IMG/VR virus record: IMGVR_UViG_649989947_000025
Reading direction: 5' to 3' (one strand)
Source of the DNA: a virus
Lineage: Duplodnaviria > Heunggongvirae > Uroviricota > Caudoviricetes
Length of the DNA stretch: 34,029 bases
The notes beneath the pieces are model-generated. The model searched no databases. It was not told where the DNA came from and was given only the letters and a program-made list of their open reading frames with translations. Position 1 is the first letter of the stretch. Each line of letters begins with the position of its first letter. Position numbers and translations under genes: made by a program. Positions 19,467 to 32,890 of the stretch are shown one piece after another.

Positions 19467-20441
19467 TTAAATCAAGTCTAATGTACTCTGTTTCCCTGGC
19501 CATTTTAGCTCTAACAAATACTCCCGGGACTCATTTATGATCATAATCACATCATCATAATCCCGTTTTGTTTTTAGCGCTCTAGCCATGTTGCTCTTAA
19601 CTAAATCAACTGTTCCCTCACAATTAAGATTAAGCGGATTATTAGGTAGGTGAGGTACAACCGCAAACACTGGTCTTTTCGCCTTATTTGCAAACTCAGC
19701 TTGAGTTATCGTTCCGCTATTTAACGCAGCCTCGATTAAAATTGAACCTGCAGATAATCCAACTTGTATCCGATTTCTTTGTACAAATGATTGTTTCTGG
19801 GCCGGCCGACCCATAGGATACTCAGAAATCCATGCACCACCTTTATCCAGAATCTCTTGAGCAAGTCGACTGTTTTGCTTCGGCTTAGCCTCCTCAAGAC
19901 CATGCGCCAAGACAGCAATGGTTTTTCCTTTTGCCTGTAACGTTGCCTTGTGGGCATTCGCATCAGTGCCTATTGCTAACCCACTTACAACAATATACCC
20001 AGCAGACACTATCTGATTAGTGATCCGCCTCGTTATTTCTTCCCCTGCAGGGGAGGTATCACGGGATCCTACAATTGCGACACCCGGCAATTCTTTGAGT
20101 ATACTTTTATCCCCTTTTATGTAGAGAATTGATGGTGGATTAGGAGTAAAAGCTAAACTAAGAGGATAGAATTCAGACCCATATGGTATTAGCTCCACAC
20201 CATTAACATGGTGGTTCTCCAATTCAGCGTTCGCTATTAGAAAATCAGTCTCAGATATTTTATCTTTTAGAAACCCGTGGCTATTAACCATCTCAGTTAA
20301 GTCGCGTATATCACGAATAACATCAAAATCGATAAGCTCAAAGAATTTTAATACACTTTGATCAGATGCTAGCTTCCCGATTTGAATAGCTAATCCAAGT
20401 GTATTTTTTAATTCTTCTGAGTGCACTTTGCTACTCCTCAT
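19467..20441 (-). CDS. DprA/Smf-like (SLOG Rossmann-fold) protein, ShosA-like partner of the upstream PRTase
   Basis: AIVGSRDTS ... VVSGLAIGTDANAHKATL ... TIAVLAHGLE motifs; 11-nt overlap with the upstream gene; AT-rich. Confidence 0.7.
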   Translation of the reverse strand: MRSSKVHSEELKNTLGLAIQIGKLASDQSVLKFFELIDFDVIRDIRDLTEMVNSHGFLKDKISETDFLIANAELENHHVNGVELIPYGSEFYPLSLAFTPNPPSILYIKGDKSILKELPGVAIVGSRDTSPAGEEITRRITNQIVSAGYIVVSGLAIGTDANAHKATLQAKGKTIAVLAHGLEEAKPKQNSRLAQEILDKGGAWISEYPMGRPAQKQSFVQRNRIQVGLSAGSILIEAALNSGTITQAEFANKAKRPVFAVVPHLPNNPLNLNCEGTVDLVKSNMARALKTKRDYDDVIMIINESREYLLELKWPGKQSTLDLI

Positions 20442-21006
20442 AGTTTGCAGTTTCTAGCAGAGCTAATGGCATTATAACTCCAGCTCCTGCAGACTCCAGT
20501 AAATAAAAACACGCAGACAAACTACCGCCTGTTGTTTTAACATCATCTAGTAGTAACACATTTCGCCCCATGAGGTTACCACCCCTAACTCTGATACTAG
20601 ACATGTGACCAGTAATTGAGCGATCTCCTCCTTCACGATGTGCGCTAGGAACAGTGCGTGTTCTTTCCAAACAGCAATCAACAATGCCCCGACGGTGAAC
20701 ATTTACGATTCGCTCGGCGACCTCAATCAAAGCCGGTGAAATTCTGCCTTCAGTGTGAGACGGGACAACTGCTATCGAAAAAGGAGACTCAACAAAACGC
20801 CCACCGCCACCTCTGATTACTAACCGCCCAACCTTATCTATAGCTAATCGAGAAAAACGGTTAATGGCCCTTTGATGATTACGATTATTTTCATCCTTAA
20901 AATCCATCATCTGCCTTGATAGTTCATCGCTATGAGGGTTGCGCTCTCCCAAATGCCAGTAGGGGTGATACAAGCCACACGATGTAATACTTACGGGTAA
21001 AAGCAT
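20431..21006 (-). CDS. phosphoribosyltransferase-domain protein, ShosT-like candidate toxin/effector
   Basis: PRTase PRPP-binding signature VLLLDDVKTTGGSL; first gene of a two-gene operon; AT-rich. Confidence 0.7.
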   Translation of the reverse strand: MLLPVSITSCGLYHPYWHLGERNPHSDELSRQMMDFKDENNRNHQRAINRFSRLAIDKVGRLVIRGGGGRFVESPFSIAVVPSHTEGRISPALIEVAERIVNVHRRGIVDCCLERTRTVPSAHREGGDRSITGHMSSIRVRGGNLMGRNVLLLDDVKTTGGSLSACFYLLESAGAGVIMPLALLETANYEE

Positions 21007-21130
21007 TCTTTATTCTCATGTAGTCCTAACTCAAACAATGTTAAGCGAAATGATATTTCATAGACAAACACAAATTTAAGAATAATCTCAATGATCACAT
21101 TTTTGATTATGAAACAAAGCCAAGAGTTAG

Positions 21131-21165
21131 CGCGCGCTCGTATCCCCGCCACGCCTGCCCGCTTT
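21131..21165 (-). other. candidate cos site (cohesive-end region)
   Basis: minus strand reads GGCGTGGCGGGGATACGAGCGCGCGCT, resembling the P2/186 cohesive-end start recalled from memory; correct position and orientation relative to Q. Confidence 0.45.
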
Positions 21166-21534
21166 ATGCAGTGGTTTTCATGCACATGCATGACATGAGC
21201 AAAAGCCCGCCAGTTCTGGCGGATCTGAGCAAAGACGATCCTCAATCGATCATGCGATTTCATGCAGCATAGTCATGCACTGTCAAGGAAGTGAAAATCC
21301 GTATCTGAATGGCCACTTGAAAAACGGATCATACGGGTTTACAAAGATGAATGTTCGCTGTGAACGGGAAGCGGAAGTTAGCTTTCAGATAACATAATCC
21401 ATATGCACGAGAACCTCTAAAATAGAATGGGACACCTAAGCGGGGTACTTACAACGATTCTTTCCATATTCACAGTTAACACTCTGTTTGGCGTATTTTT
21501 ATTCAAATAGCAAACACCAATAAAAGGAGTTTCC

Positions 21535-21870
21535 ATGAACAATATTCCCCCTATACCACAGTTAGGAATTTATGTCTCAAAAATCGATCCCACCCTACGT
21601 ATCACTGTAACCGATGTTGATATTGTTGATGGTGAGGATGATTCTCCTGATGATGAATTGTTTTATTTAGTCCACTGGATCGAGGGGGAAGATGAAAGTG
21701 ATATGACAGCAATGGGATTTGAGCTAGACCCAGTAGAGTGGCAGGCTTTCGTTGAATCTGAGCAATTAGTGTTTGAGCGTGATCCGTACATGGATTCAAT
21801 CCCCGAAAATTCAAACTTGGCAAAGATTCGGGATTTTCTCATGAAGACTAAACAGAATGATCATTCGTAA
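21535..21870 (+). CDS. hypothetical highly acidic small protein
   Basis: 111 aa, about 26 Asp/Glu vs 7 Lys/Arg; strong SD AAAAGGAG 6 nt before ATG; AT-rich. Confidence 0.6.
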   Translation: MNNIPPIPQLGIYVSKIDPTLRITVTDVDIVDGEDDSPDDELFYLVHWIEGEDESDMTAMGFELDPVEWQAFVESEQLVFERDPYMDSIPENSNLAKIRDFLMKTKQNDHS

Positions 21871-22062
21871 GTGTAAGCATTCATCAGGAAAATGGTTTTG
21901 TAAGTGAATCATCAACTTTTAGAGAGTCTCAGACACTCCCACTTCTGCTTCTGACACAAAGCGGACGATCACTTATCAAAATAACCGCCCACCTTACGCC
22001 TTATTTCACTCATTGCCCAAACTAGCCCCCATCAGAATGAATCCTCCTGGGGGCAACGTTTC

Positions 22063-22296
22063 TTAATGCAGCCAGCTGTCGTCCTCCCACACCTTCTGCA
22101 TAATTTTCATCACTTGTTTTCTTTCTTCATCCAGTTGCAGTCCGGTTAGTTCCACACCGTTAGAGCTACCTTTGCGAATGCGAATTACCGTTTTGGGATA
22201 CAGGGGGCGCAGATTGCGGTAAAGCTCGGATTCAAGGGCGTCCAGGGTAGACTGGCTAATCTTCTGCTCTTTATCGATCATTATTTCAATGCGCAT
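22063..22296 (-). CDS. DinI-family protein
   Basis: MRIEIMIDK...LYRNLRPLYP...VWEDDSWL resembles DinI; start at internal Met (longest ORF to 22368). Confidence 0.75.
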   Translation of the reverse strand: MRIEIMIDKEQKISQSTLDALESELYRNLRPLYPKTVIRIRKGSSNGVELTGLQLDEERKQVMKIMQKVWEDDSWLH

Positions 22297-22306
22297 AAAA
22301 GTCACC

Positions 22307-22495
22307 TCAGCTGATGACATCCATTGAGCGGTTGTATTCGTGGCTTCTGATTTTTGCCATAAGTTCATCAGTCAATTCAGAAACCCACTGCAGAGCCAGC
22401 CCCTTCTCTTCATCACTACACTCACTAGCCGCTACAAGCTTAAGAAAAAAATCAATGCGCTGGAGCTTCAAAGACTCCAAAAAATAGTCCTGCAT
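22307..22495 (-). CDS. SOS-inducible small protein, Tum-like antirepressor candidate
   Basis: 62 aa from MQDY with AGGAGG SD; first gene downstream of the LexA box; arrangement recalls the 186 tum operon. Confidence 0.5.
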   Translation of the reverse strand: MQDYFLESLKLQRIDFFLKLVAASECSDEEKGLALQWVSELTDELMAKIRSHEYNRSMDVIS

Positions 22496-22537
22496 CTTTC
22501 CTCCTATGACACCACACACAATGCTGTATGTATAACC

Positions 22538-22556
22538 ACTGTTTATATTTACAGTA
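22538..22556. promoter_or_regulatory. LexA box (SOS operator)
   Basis: ACTGTTTATATTTACAGTA, i.e. CTGT-N8(AT-rich)-ACAG, 43-61 nt upstream of the Tum-like start. Confidence 0.75.
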
Positions 22557-22883: not shown

Positions 22884-27019
<4,136 letters not shown>

Positions 27020-27023
<4 letters not shown>

Positions 27024-29797: not shown

Positions 29798-30373
29798 GTG
29801 ACCATGAATTTGGAGAAAGGCGGACGAGGCGCTATAGAGCGCATGGTAGAAGCATATGGCTTCAAGACTCGACAGGCGTTGTGCGATCACTTAGGAATCT
29901 CTAAAAGTACTCTCGCCACACGCTATATGCGTGACTCATTCCCTGCTGAATGGGTAATCCAGTGCGCACTTGAAACGGGCGCCTCGCTTAACTGGCTCAC
30001 GACCGGACATGGTTCAAAGCAAACTTCAGGTAATACAAATACTATGGAAGTCGTTAAATATGTATTATCTGATGGAACCTTGCAGGAAGATGGTTTTTAT
30101 ATTTTCGATAAAGAATTTCTACCATCTACGCTCAAAAATCCGTTTGTAATCACCGATAACAATTCCGTTTTTATTTGCGATAAAGAGTTTAACGATATTC
30201 GTGACGGCAAATGGGTAATAAGTATTGATGCCGAAGTAACAATCCGCGATATCACTCGTTTACCTGGTGGAAGAATCTTAGTTGAAGGTGGAAATAGGGC
30301 TTTCGAATGTAAAAAAGAAGAAATCGAAATTATTGGAAAAATTATAAGCATAACAGTTAAGTACTTTGAGTAA
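29798..30373 (+). CDS. cI: CI-type immunity repressor (186 CI-like)
   Basis: 191 aa, N-terminal CI-type HTH (KTRQALCDHLGISKSTLATRYMRD) plus C-terminal oligomerisation domain; position next to the switch. Confidence 0.8.
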   Translation: MTMNLEKGGRGAIERMVEAYGFKTRQALCDHLGISKSTLATRYMRDSFPAEWVIQCALETGASLNWLTTGHGSKQTSGNTNTMEVVKYVLSDGTLQEDGFYIFDKEFLPSTLKNPFVITDNNSVFICDKEFNDIRDGKWVISIDAEVTIRDITRLPGGRILVEGGNRAFECKKEEIEIIGKIISITVKYFE

Positions 30374-30423: not shown

Positions 30424-31347
30424 ATGTCAACTCAAAAATTAAAATTTAGCCATATCAAAAACGATCTGAAAGCAATAGTTATGCAGAATCGTGGAGGGCA
30501 AAAAGTTATTGAGCGTATACTCCTAGCCTATGGCTTCAAGTCACGACAGGCATTATGTAATCATCTAGGTATTTCCCAAAGTACTATGGCCAACAGATAT
30601 GCACGTAATACCTTTCCTGCAGATTGGGTTGTTATATGTTCCATAGAAACAGGAGCATCAATTGAATGGTTAGTTCTTGGTTCAGATACTGCTCCTTCAT
30701 CAGAGCAATATTCTGAAAAACATGCCGTTAATGGCCTTTGCAATGAAGTATACATTCCCACTATAAAGTTCGATAATGAAAAACTCATGAATTTTAACCG
30801 AGGGGGTAAGGCAACAATAGAACGAATTGTCGAGGCTTACGGTTACAAAACGCGCCAAGCATTAGCTGATCACCTAGGTATTTCAAAAAGCACATTAGCC
30901 ACACGATACATGCGTGACATTTTTCCTGCAGACTGGGTTTTGCAGTGTGCAATAGAAACGGGCCATTCTATTGAATGGATTTCATTTGGTACAGGAGAAA
31001 TGAAAAACGCAAAAAATAAAGATACTTTAACATTAGTGAAAAAAGTATTAATCAATGGCAAGTTAATAAATGATGGCTCATATTTATTTGACCCATGCTT
31101 TCTACCTTCCAATTTAAAAAATGCATTCGTAGTATCTACCGAAGACTCTGAATTAATATGTGAAATGGGTTTTAAAGATGTACATGATGGTAAGTGGCTA
31201 GTAAATATTGATGGAGAGAATTCATTTAGAATGATAACTCGACTACCTAAAGGACGAGTTTATATTTCATCCCAAAATCACTCTTTTGAATGTTCGCTTA
31301 CAGACATTGAGTTTATTGCAAAAGTTATTATAAGTTGTTTACATTAA
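30424..31347 (+). CDS. CI-repressor paralog with two tandem CI-type HTH domains
   Basis: residues ~24-88 and ~127-190 each repeat the CI HTH; C-terminal ~110 aa align with the C-terminal domain of the upstream CI. Confidence 0.75.
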   Translation: MSTQKLKFSHIKNDLKAIVMQNRGGQKVIERILLAYGFKSRQALCNHLGISQSTMANRYARNTFPADWVVICSIETGASIEWLVLGSDTAPSSEQYSEKHAVNGLCNEVYIPTIKFDNEKLMNFNRGGKATIERIVEAYGYKTRQALADHLGISKSTLATRYMRDIFPADWVLQCAIETGHSIEWISFGTGEMKNAKNKDTLTLVKKVLINGKLINDGSYLFDPCFLPSNLKNAFVVSTEDSELICEMGFKDVHDGKWLVNIDGENSFRMITRLPKGRVYISSQNHSFECSLTDIEFIAKVIISCLH

Positions 31348-31372: not shown

Positions 31373-32890
31373 GTGAAATGTGGTGATTGTAATTGGAACT
31401 GGGATGAAGAAACTACCTTTATATTAGACGACGAAGAGGAAATTCTTTCCAAAGACAAACTTAATCGGAGACACTATGCAGAATATCTATATTTTTATCT
31501 TAAGGAAAAGGGGCAAAAGAACAACACGGTAATCAACCTTAATGCAGAATGGGGAGCTGGTAAAAGTTTTTTCATAAAGAGATTTTATAACTCAATAAAA
31601 GATGCACACCCATGCGTTTACATTGATGCCTGGAAGCAAGACTTTTCTGATGATGCATTTTTAACCCTTTTTTCTTCTTTGTCACAACAATTGCAAACAT
31701 ATGCAGGAAAACTTGATGCTCGATTGATACAAAGCGGCCATGCTATCGGACGCTTTACAAAAGGTGTTCTACCTGAAATCATATCTGGCCTAATCAAGAC
31801 TTATGCAGGAGTAGATAACGTAGGTGATATAGCCAAAGAAGCCTCATTAATAATGCTGAAGGAACACCAGGAAAAACTGAAGAGCATTAAGGTATTAAAA
31901 AAAGAACTAACGTTATGGTCTAGGTTGGCATATGAAAATAGTTTTTCATGTCCTATATTTATCTTTATAGATGAATTAGACAGATGCAGGCCAGATTATG
32001 CAATTTCTCTTTTAGAGATTGTTAAACATATATTCGATATTAAAAATTTTGTCTTTATTATTGCTACTGACACAGATCAATTACAACATTCAATCAAGAA
32101 TGTTTACGGTAATGATTTTTCCGCAAATGACTATTTAGGCCGTTTTTTTCATAGAAGATTTACTTTAAAACAACCTGAACTTAAAGATTTAATTAATGGT
32201 GTTGTTGGTGATTATATTGGTACCGATTTTGAAAATATCACATCAAAAACACACCCACTAACAGCAACATTAGAAGACTTTTCAATAAATATTTCCAACG
32301 TATTTGAAGCATTTGGGTTAAATCTAAGAGACTCAATCCGAAATACTGAAAGGTTAATAGACATTCTTAAATCTGATTTAGTCAAAAAGAAAGTAGATTA
32401 TATTTTTATAATTTCGCTAATGATTATATATGATAAGGAACGTCAAATTATAGATGGACTAATTGGTCGAAGAAATGCAGCACAACGTTTCACTGATTCG
32501 ATAAAGCAAAGCTCCAATTTAAAAGGTGTTTCTCAAGCCATCCTTGAATTAAATCTTGATACAAATCAGCAAAGAATAGGTGTCAATTATATCTATAGAA
32601 CGGCGAGCAGTAGATTATTCATCTCACAGATCGAGCCCAAAATAAATTTAACATTAATAAATTACTTAGATGTTGCATTGTATTTTATTAATAATATAAA
32701 CATGCTTAAATCAAGTATAAAAAACAATGGGCAAAATTCACTAATGATTATATCTCAACAAGGCCCTATTGATGGTGATACAGCTATAAAGTATTTGCAA
32801 GGAGCCCTTATAGAGAATGGTCTGAATACATCTTTTTATGCCTTACATAATTACATTGAATTAATTGAACTGGCCACATCATTTGATTAA
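31373..32890 (+). CDS. KAP-family P-loop NTPase
   Basis: Walker A NAEWGAGKSFF, KAP-type Walker B FIFIDELDRC, 505 aa, GTG start with GGAG SD; very AT-rich. Confidence 0.75.
   Translation: MKCGDCNWNWDEETTFILDDEEEILSKDKLNRRHYAEYLYFYLKEKGQKNNTVINLNAEWGAGKSFFIKRFYNSIKDAHPCVYIDAWKQDFSDDAFLTLFSSLSQQLQTYAGKLDARLIQSGHAIGRFTKGVLPEIISGLIKTYAGVDNVGDIAKEASLIMLKEHQEKLKSIKVLKKELTLWSRLAYENSFSCPIFIFIDELDRCRPDYAISLLEIVKHIFDIKNFVFIIATDTDQLQHSIKNVYGNDFSANDYLGRFFHRRFTLKQPELKDLINGVVGDYIGTDFENITSKTHPLTATLEDFSINISNVFEAFGLNLRDSIRNTERLIDILKSDLVKKKVDYIFIISLMIIYDKERQIIDGLIGRRNAAQRFTDSIKQSSNLKGVSQAILELNLDTNQQRIGVNYIYRTASSRLFISQIEPKINLTLINYLDVALYFINNINMLKSSIKNNGQNSLMIISQQGPIDGDTAIKYLQGALIENGLNTSFYALHNYIELIELATSFD

Follow-up and report, generated by a model that had tools for sequence, protein, structure and literature searches.

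The gene examined here, ORF111, lies within a P2-like (Peduoviridae) prophage, which constitutes the window (the whole stretch of 34,029 nucleotides that was analysed). It belongs to a small module which, as comparison of its copies indicates, was copied out of the lysogeny operon of P2-like prophages and, in E. coli, came to occupy the cargo slot that separates cos from the DinI-like gene. The module, of approximately 550 bp, was shown to comprise a 165-nt leader, ORF111 itself and the dead start of an integrase gene, and to be a self-contained accessory (“moron”) gene. A lysogeny-operon gene that moved to the cos slot with a dead int start still attached would represent a clear small example of prophage cargo movement. 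The family has already been catalogued as a DUF and the hotspot is well known; ORF111 is an uncharacterised hotspot cargo gene and not a new kind of system. The gene and its ribosome-binding site are located as follows.

21535-21870, plus strand: ORF111 coding sequence (protein WP_001059831.1; Pfam DUF8087/PF26332; phrog_17127)
21524-21529, plus strand: Shine-Dalgarno sequence AAGGAG, 5 nt 5' of the ORF111 ATG, as read from the sequence

The open reading frame opens with an ATG and translates into 111 residues, of which 26 are acidic (15 Asp and 11 Glu) and seven basic (4 Lys and 3 Arg), corresponding to a net charge of -19 and a pI of ~4.05. The original prediction, made from the letters of the window, had described a highly acidic protein of 111 residues with a strong ribosome-binding site, encoded by an AT-rich gene alone on the plus strand between cos and the SOS operon. 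Each of these points was confirmed: both of the acidic clusters that it quoted are present (within the motifs VDGEDDSPDDE and EGEDESD), the AAGGAG stands 5 nt from the ATG, the GC content of the gene is 40.5% as against 50.4% for the window, and no other sizeable plus-strand reading frame occurs in that interval. The AAAGGA of the ribosome-binding site was kept in seven of the eight diverged leader copies. Pairwise comparison with ten diverged homologs (57-96% protein identity) yielded dN/dS values of 0.10-0.22, so that ORF111 is no fortuitous open frame but a real gene under selection. The sequence contains neither a signal peptide nor a hydrophobic segment, and the product is most likely soluble and cytoplasmic.

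The description of this protein as an orphan, on the other hand, did not survive. ORF111 matches phrog_17127, to which no function has been assigned, with an E-value of 2e-70 and with residues 1-111 aligned on profile positions 1-111, and recent PGAP runs name the identical protein WP_001059831.1 “DUF8087 domain-containing protein”. PF26332 (DUF8087) is precomputed on all of the homolog clusters (61 and 78), including the 98%-identical cluster P0001. The Pfam scan of ORF111 returned no match because the release that was searched did not contain the PF26332 model; NCBIfam and PADLOC profile scans of the product likewise gave no match, and a comparison of 21 DUF8087 members with Pfam at E<=10 revealed no family common to them. 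Of 5426 complete E. coli genomes, 214 (~4%), including BL21, W and E2348/69, carry the gene for WP_001059831.1, with an identity of at least 99% in 132 of them and as a ~90%-identity allele in another 80. Conserved homologs, whose absence from other prophages had been named as counting against the original prediction, are present in other P2-like prophages.

The family as a whole is small: when 1.84 billion representative proteins were searched, its members formed 26 clusters at 50% identity. It was detected in five of 185,579 species-representative genomes, all named matches being Enterobacterales, and homologs were also found in several other genera of this order. An 899-aa match in the representative search (P0069) was discarded as a low-complexity repeat protein. 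Using tblastn, ORF111 had no match among 50,697 phage records and a single match among 72,556 plasmids, a 45-kb non-mobilizable record, and a scan of viral contigs with a short-form homolog was also empty. The DUF8087 gene was shown to occur only in temperate or integrated elements. Copies in Serratia, Proteus, Lonsdalea and E. coli are 85-90% identical, which indicates that the gene moves horizontally between genera. A literature search on DUF8087, PF26332, WP_001059831 or DNA mimics of P2-like prophages retrieved no paper on the ORF111 protein, and the iLund4u preprint does not discuss it.

The region around ORF111 is 100% identical to that of E. coli O127:H6 E2348/69 and 99.7% identical to that of BL21 and other B strains. 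The gene order reads gpP terminase and gpQ portal (plus strand), DprA-like and PRTase genes (minus strand), cos, ORF111 (plus strand), and the DinI-like and 62-aa phrog_698 genes (minus strand), followed by an IS21-family insertion, gpA and a Dam-type methylase. The landmarks that delimit the slot and the module are listed below.

21125-21281 (157 bp), minus strand: cos block, ~90% identical to other Peduoviridae
21144-21162, minus strand: cos core GGCGTGGCGGGGATACGAG, a motif match within the conserved cos block
21282-22052, unstranded: variable segment holding the ORF111 module, between the cos block and the DinI-like gene and absent from related phages
21361-21534, plus strand: conserved non-coding leader, forming the 5' edge of the mobile module, defined by comparison with copies elsewhere
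21857-21907, plus strand: fossil 5' end of a P2-type integrase gene (MIIRKCKHSSGKWFCK and a stop), overlapping the ORF111 stop by 14 nt

ORF111 is situated 373 nt from cos, whose first 13 bases follow the 186 type before the sequence diverges; the same cos type is found in the pFR109 insert of Rousset et al. 2022. The exact P2 cos 19-mer, allowing up to three mismatches, had no match in the window. In phage vB_EcoM-813R9, the cos block and the DinI-like gene lie ~68 bp apart, this stretch replacing the segment 21282-22052; the segment is also missing from Yersinia phage MLG42, and it is fully covered in 131 of the 813 E. coli genomes that match the region. This variable presence at a fixed site identifies ORF111 as variable cargo in its own right. 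The interval between gpA and gpQ is a known defence hotspot of P2-like phages, and Rst_3HP, a validated defence system, occupies the same cos/DinI-like slot in E. coli E1114, from which it was cloned (PMC9122126). The tables of Rousset et al. list WP_001059831 in the hotspot only as “hypothetical” (PMC9122126). Many anti-phage systems have already come from the cargo hotspots of P2-like prophages. P2 old/tin and Rst_3HP share with ORF111 both the gpA-gpQ hotspot and the gpA/DinI side of cos, and the AT-richness of ORF111 is likewise that of typical hotspot cargo. However, old/tin and Rst_3HP, for which anti-phage phenotypes have been demonstrated, are large enzymes or systems of several genes, whereas ORF111 encodes a single protein of 111 aa that carries no domain of known activity.

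The edges of the module were defined against copies in unrelated contexts, namely an E. coli island next to ychF and islands in Lonsdalea, Proteus, Serratia and Symbiopectobacterium. Similarity to these copies sets in ~165-174 nt upstream of the ATG and extends to 36 nt past the stop codon, and the sequences upstream of the 5' edge of the leader are unrelated between contexts. A hexanucleotide repeat, (GCGGAA)n, is found exactly at the 5' edge, with two copies in the window (~21367-21378) and about seven in the cos-slot variant L046 (~5800-5850 in L046-L048); it could mark a recombination junction or be a slippage-prone site.

On the portal side of cos lies a second cargo, and the original prediction had suggested that ORF111 could be a partner or antagonist of a neighbouring cargo system.

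19467-20441, minus strand: DprA-like gene (Pfam DNA_processg_A, 1.4e-60; PADLOC ShosA, 2.8e-70)
20431-21006, minus strand: PRTase gene, ShosT-like (phrog_7188, E=4.5e-83; PADLOC ShosT, 3.7e-14)

The PRTase reading frame shares 11 nt with the DprA-like gene. In the RefSeq records that were inspected (CP059840.2 and CP030939) it is not annotated as a CDS, and for CP030939 the Rousset table gives DNA_processg_A only and does not list the PRTase (PMC9122126). The portal-side cargo found beside an identical ORF111 protein differs among five complete genomes.

E2348/69: DprA-PRTase
AMSHJX01: DprA-PRTase
BL21: retron Ec86 (St85 family)
E. coli W: GmrSD
13E0725: retron Ec67

Across 27 cos-type IMG/VR prophage loci, the block running from cos through the leader, ORF111 and the tail to the DinI-like gene is ~99-100% identical. 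In these loci the slot between the portal gene and cos accommodates at least 17 different cargos and is empty in one locus; besides those listed above, these include PIN_12, Schlafen/AlbA_2, ORC-CDC6-like, Old-like, AbiU, PDC-S06, a second GmrSD, bSEFIR, AbiL-like and several small ORFs. As the same module stands opposite so many cargos, or opposite none, ORF111 is not tied to the DprA-PRTase (ShosTA-like) pair as its partner; the pair accompanies it in only four of the 27 cos-type loci, and for this pair the suggested relationship was not upheld. The idea that ORF111 specifically serves the adjacent ShosTA-like system as a third component, or counteracts it, draws its sole support from their closeness in the window; as the two are encoded on opposite strands with cos in between, in addition to the shifting company of the identical protein, this reading is already contradicted and considered highly improbable.

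The origin of the module is revealed by its 3' end and by its relatives in other prophages. The 36-nt tail after the ORF111 stop, in the +2 frame, reads MIIRKCKHSSGKWFCK up to a stop codon, which is the beginning of a P2-type integrase. Intact integrase genes start VTVRKLPSGKWLCQCFPYGRDGKRIRRQF, and the intact starts used for comparison read VTVRKLPSGKWLCQC in Klebsiella and MTVRKLPSGKWLSEC in the L053 lineage. A longer int fossil of 71 aa is retained in the island copies and the cos-slot variant (L006, L046, L051, L055 and L057), and in the cos-slot variant (L046-L048) two further genes, one of 127 aa and one for a GNAT, are preserved. In Enterobacter kobei, the DUF8087 gene overlaps a live int by the same 14 nt. 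The order cI, Flk_N-like gene, DUF8087, int recurs in the P2-like prophages of the Klebsiella, Enterobacter kobei, Buttiauxella and L053 lineages, and altogether five lineages place DUF8087 inside a cI-int operon, with gaps of 10-25 nt and with its stop overlapping the start of int. The DUF8087 proteins of the four lineages named, at 57-77% identity, are the most diverged of the long forms. The Flk_N-like protein is 211-215 aa in length and bears an Flk_N domain and a C-terminal membrane anchor; its gene is absent from the window. Wherever it was seen (L017-L021, L053, L054, L059 and L062), it always precedes DUF8087, ~650 nt upstream.

The narrow gaps and the int overlap leave no room for a promoter of DUF8087's own in the lysogeny-operon lineages and imply its co-transcription with the repressor; given the established organisation of P2- and 186-type phages, the gene should be co-transcribed with the repressor in lysogens. 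Elsewhere it was encountered in other arrangements.

Metagenomic integrative elements: int, DUF8087, SRA+HNH, AlpA-like, gpA-like replication gene
Metagenomic contig L011: DUF8087, PD-Lambda-5_A (E=1e-96), D12 methylase, PD-T4-6-like kinase
Providencia P2-like prophage: ogr, DUF8087, AAA_15/21 ATPase pair
Pantoea chromosome (L009): lone 102-aa DUF8087 gene between an MFS transporter gene and pgsA-uvrC

The pgsA-uvrC locus is the integration site of the Klebsiella and Enterobacter P2-like prophages, and the lone Pantoea copy at this site is probably all that remains of a prophage that has decayed. The ~90%-identity allele was examined in one of its E. coli carriers, FDAARGOS_497 (L006/L022), where it stands outside any P2 prophage in an integrase-bounded island next to ychF of roughly 35 kb or more. 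This island contains very large genes for helicases and ATPases together with RadC, DUF2787 and IS elements, and within it DUF8087 is followed by the 71-aa int fossil and then by the 127-aa gene.

In the simplest history compatible with these comparisons, the lysogeny-operon gene would have been excised together with the first codons of int, the resulting small module would then have spread among islands and genera, and it would finally have entered the E. coli cos slot, where a later deletion would have left the 16-codon fossil; this order of events is the one that we infer.

The recurrence of the operon order, with the DUF8087 stop overlapping the int start, could also be taken to signify that DUF8087 is an accessory factor of the lysogeny operon, working with the Flk_N-like membrane protein or with the integrase, and not a mimic. 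Such a factor might tune integration or excision, or might alter a host membrane or export process (lysogenic conversion), and the E. coli copy would then be a stand-alone derivative keeping part of the activity. The position of DUF8087 directly after int in the metagenomic integrative elements, the int fossil still carried by the E. coli and island copies, the C-terminal membrane anchor of the putative partner, and the fact that SH3-like barrels (the fold predicted for ORF111, as described below) are typically protein-binding modules all agree with this reading. Nevertheless, the E. coli module remains intact, nearly invariant in more than 100 genomes and under purifying selection although it has neither a Flk_N-like gene nor a live adjacent int. 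The Flk_N-like partner also diverges much faster than DUF8087: in two lineages it shows ~40% identity, whereas DUF8087 shows ~77% and 70% to the window protein. Finally, int-adjacent sites are generic cargo sites, the window itself having a KAP NTPase between cI and int. An accessory role of this kind is thus regarded as rather unlikely.

The protein itself was modelled with AlphaFold2 on a 32-sequence alignment. The conserved core of DUF8087 spans residues 5-82 in ORF111 numbering, with P8, G11, Y13, S15, V25, E63 and W69 invariant; the last ~30 residues, including a helix, are found mainly in the long members of ~100-111 aa. In the model (pLDDT 78.7, pTM 0.64), strands at residues 11-15, 22-31, 43-50, 61-64 and 78-82 and helices at 66-76, 84-87 and 94-108 are arranged in a beta-barrel plus helix topology. 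The product is accordingly predicted to be a small SH3-like beta-barrel with two poly-Asp/Glu loops, at residues 31-42 and 50-60, which hold most of its charge. Across the family, the first loop varies from 4 to 14 residues in length and averages 58% Asp/Glu and 3% basic residues, and the second averages 36% Asp/Glu; the composition of these loops is conserved and their sequence is not. A profile of 32 DUF8087 members found no chain among the PDB sequences at E<=10, and a Foldseek search of the model against PDB and BFVD returned nothing at E<=1e-3. DUF1653 (PDB 3be3), FeoA and the small barrels of CarD/Tudor and EF-P domain I gave marginal scores at 4-15% identity; none of them has poly-acidic loops and none indicates a function.

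The comparison with Ocr- and ArdA-like DNA mimics that the original prediction had proposed as a check was carried out by structure prediction, and the model does not resemble any solved DNA mimic in fold. Proteins of the Ocr (T7) and ArdA type are, like the ORF111 product, small (~110-170 aa), strongly acidic, soluble and encoded by mobile elements. Ocr is helical and ArdA is elongated and multi-domain, whereas the ORF111 model is a beta-barrel with acidic loops. There is no sequence similarity between ORF111 or DUF8087 and Ocr, ArdA or other solved DNA mimics, as judged from Pfam scans and from the profile comparison with PDB at E<=10, nor do they share a fold with the model in Foldseek. The setting differs as well, DUF8087 being placed, in the relatives, in the lysogeny operon and not among the first-expressed early genes. 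The similar size and acidity notwithstanding, membership in such families is already contradicted, and hardly any credence can be given to ORF111 being a distant relative of Ocr, ArdA or another established anti-restriction protein. The absence of DUF8087 from virulent or isolated phages and its near-absence from plasmids argue, moreover, against a general anti-restriction role, and its lysogeny-operon position in relatives argues against a classical one.

That a protein is acidic says little, taken by itself, about whether it mimics DNA. A large net negative charge conserved across the family, which is expected of the DNA-mimic class, is nonetheless found here, with -19 for ORF111 and -8 to -22 for the whole protein across 46 DUF8087 relatives. 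CarS, the antirepressor of Myxococcus xanthus, combines small size, acidity and an SH3-like beta fold and has been reported as a mimic of operator DNA; it resembles the ORF111 model in all three respects and demonstrates that such a fold can act as a DNA mimic. As far as ORF111 itself is concerned, these findings decide neither for nor against a role as a DNA mimic.

The reading preferred here, held tentatively and with some reserve, is that the ORF111 product may be an acidic decoy, directed at the basic surface with which a target protein binds nucleic acid. Made in the lysogen and acting stoichiometrically, the decoy would occupy this surface and so block the target in the manner of a DNA mimic. 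Two roles are considered about equally probable: the element, whether incoming or already resident, would be shielded from a nuclease-type defence of the host, or a superinfecting phage would have one of its DNA-binding proteins disabled. The decoy is suggested by the net negative charge being conserved across DUF8087 while the sequence is not, by the location of some copies directly upstream of defence genes (SRA+HNH; PD-Lambda-5_A, D12 methylase and PD-T4-6-like kinase; the AAA_15/21 pair), and by the ability of Rst_3HP to take the place of ORF111 in the E. coli slot. A bolder version is more doubtful: DUF8087 would constitute a structurally new class of nucleic-acid mimics, in which poly-acidic loops are displayed on an SH3-like barrel. 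Temperate P2-like phages and small integrative elements would co-express it with the integrase and the repressor, and while lysogeny is established and maintained it would neutralise a nuclease-type defence of the host or a DNA-binding protein of a rival phage. It would then also have escaped notice in E. coli BL21, W and EPEC E2348/69.

ORF111 could also be a superinfection-exclusion or defence gene that does not rely on charge mimicry, for example a sensor or adaptor for neighbouring defence effectors or a block of phage-receptor assembly. DUF8087 occupies slots that related prophages fill with defence systems, whether validated or predicted, is restricted to prophages and integrated elements, and would be expressed from the lysogeny operon in relatives, to judge from gene order. 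No PADLOC model matches it, however, and it has no enzymatic or membrane domain; it also has no fixed partner, being found beside many unrelated effectors or alone. Exclusion or defence without mimicry is viewed as rather unlikely.

The outcome would matter beyond this prophage, given that ORF111 is native to BL21(DE3), where it adjoins retron Ec86 in a locus widely used in retron research and engineering. Should it turn out to inhibit a defence system or a competing phage, the acidic decoy proteins would gain a new fold, and the reading of phage-plating and retron data from B strains could be affected. If nothing of the kind were found, ORF111 would stay an ordinary DUF-family moron.

As for its expression, the E. 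coli copy was searched for signals of its own and for those of its neighbours.

21469-21499, plus strand: weak candidate sigma-70 promoter (TTCACA, 19-nt spacer, TATTTT), the best site kept in seven of eight leaders
22063-22554, minus strand: SOS operon of the DinI-like gene (Pfam DinI, 1.2e-22) and the 62-aa phrog_698 gene
22539-22554, minus strand: perfect LexA box CTGTTTATATTTACAG in the promoter region of the DinI-like/phrog_698 operon
21223-21206, minus strand: terminator-like hairpin inside the cos block, from the terminator scan

The candidate promoter scores 8.4, which equals the median best score of shuffled sequence, and it was not detected in a consensus promoter scan, which gave no convincing promoter for the E. 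coli copy. The product is nevertheless probably made in the lysogen, as the analysis of its relatives suggests. The leader was rejected as a structured RNA: the comparison with Rfam gave no credible match (only a chance snoRNA, E=0.93, downstream of ORF111), and its folding z-score of -0.27 indicates no unusual fold. A LexA box of ORF111's own, CTTTCCATATTCACAG at 21460-21475, was also rejected, since it has one mismatch in the critical CTG and the island copy differs; matches to the LexA box with one mismatch are not enriched in the window (17 found as against 11.9 expected). The hairpin at 21223-21206 is the only minus-strand terminator that the scan placed between the DinI-like gene and cos, so that SOS transcripts may run antisense through ORF111.

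Several further features of the window prophage deserve mention. The IS21-family element (22884-24837; 1954 bp, with a 5-bp target duplication) encodes IstA with an rve domain (23729-24751) and IstB (22950-23732), and is absent from the E2348/69 assembly CP059840.2. Its insertion 233 nt before the 3' end of gpA has produced a truncated gpA of 752 aa (24765-27023) and a C-terminal remnant, and the prophage is probably replication-defective. Two tandem CI-type repressor genes are present, the first encoding 191 aa (29798-30373) and the second, an ORF at 30424-31347, containing Phage_CI_repr and Phage_CI_C domains. The KAP-family NTPase gene (31373-32890; PADLOC PDC-S20, 5e-78) lies between cI and int (32977 onward), which marks the cI-int interval as another cargo slot of this prophage.
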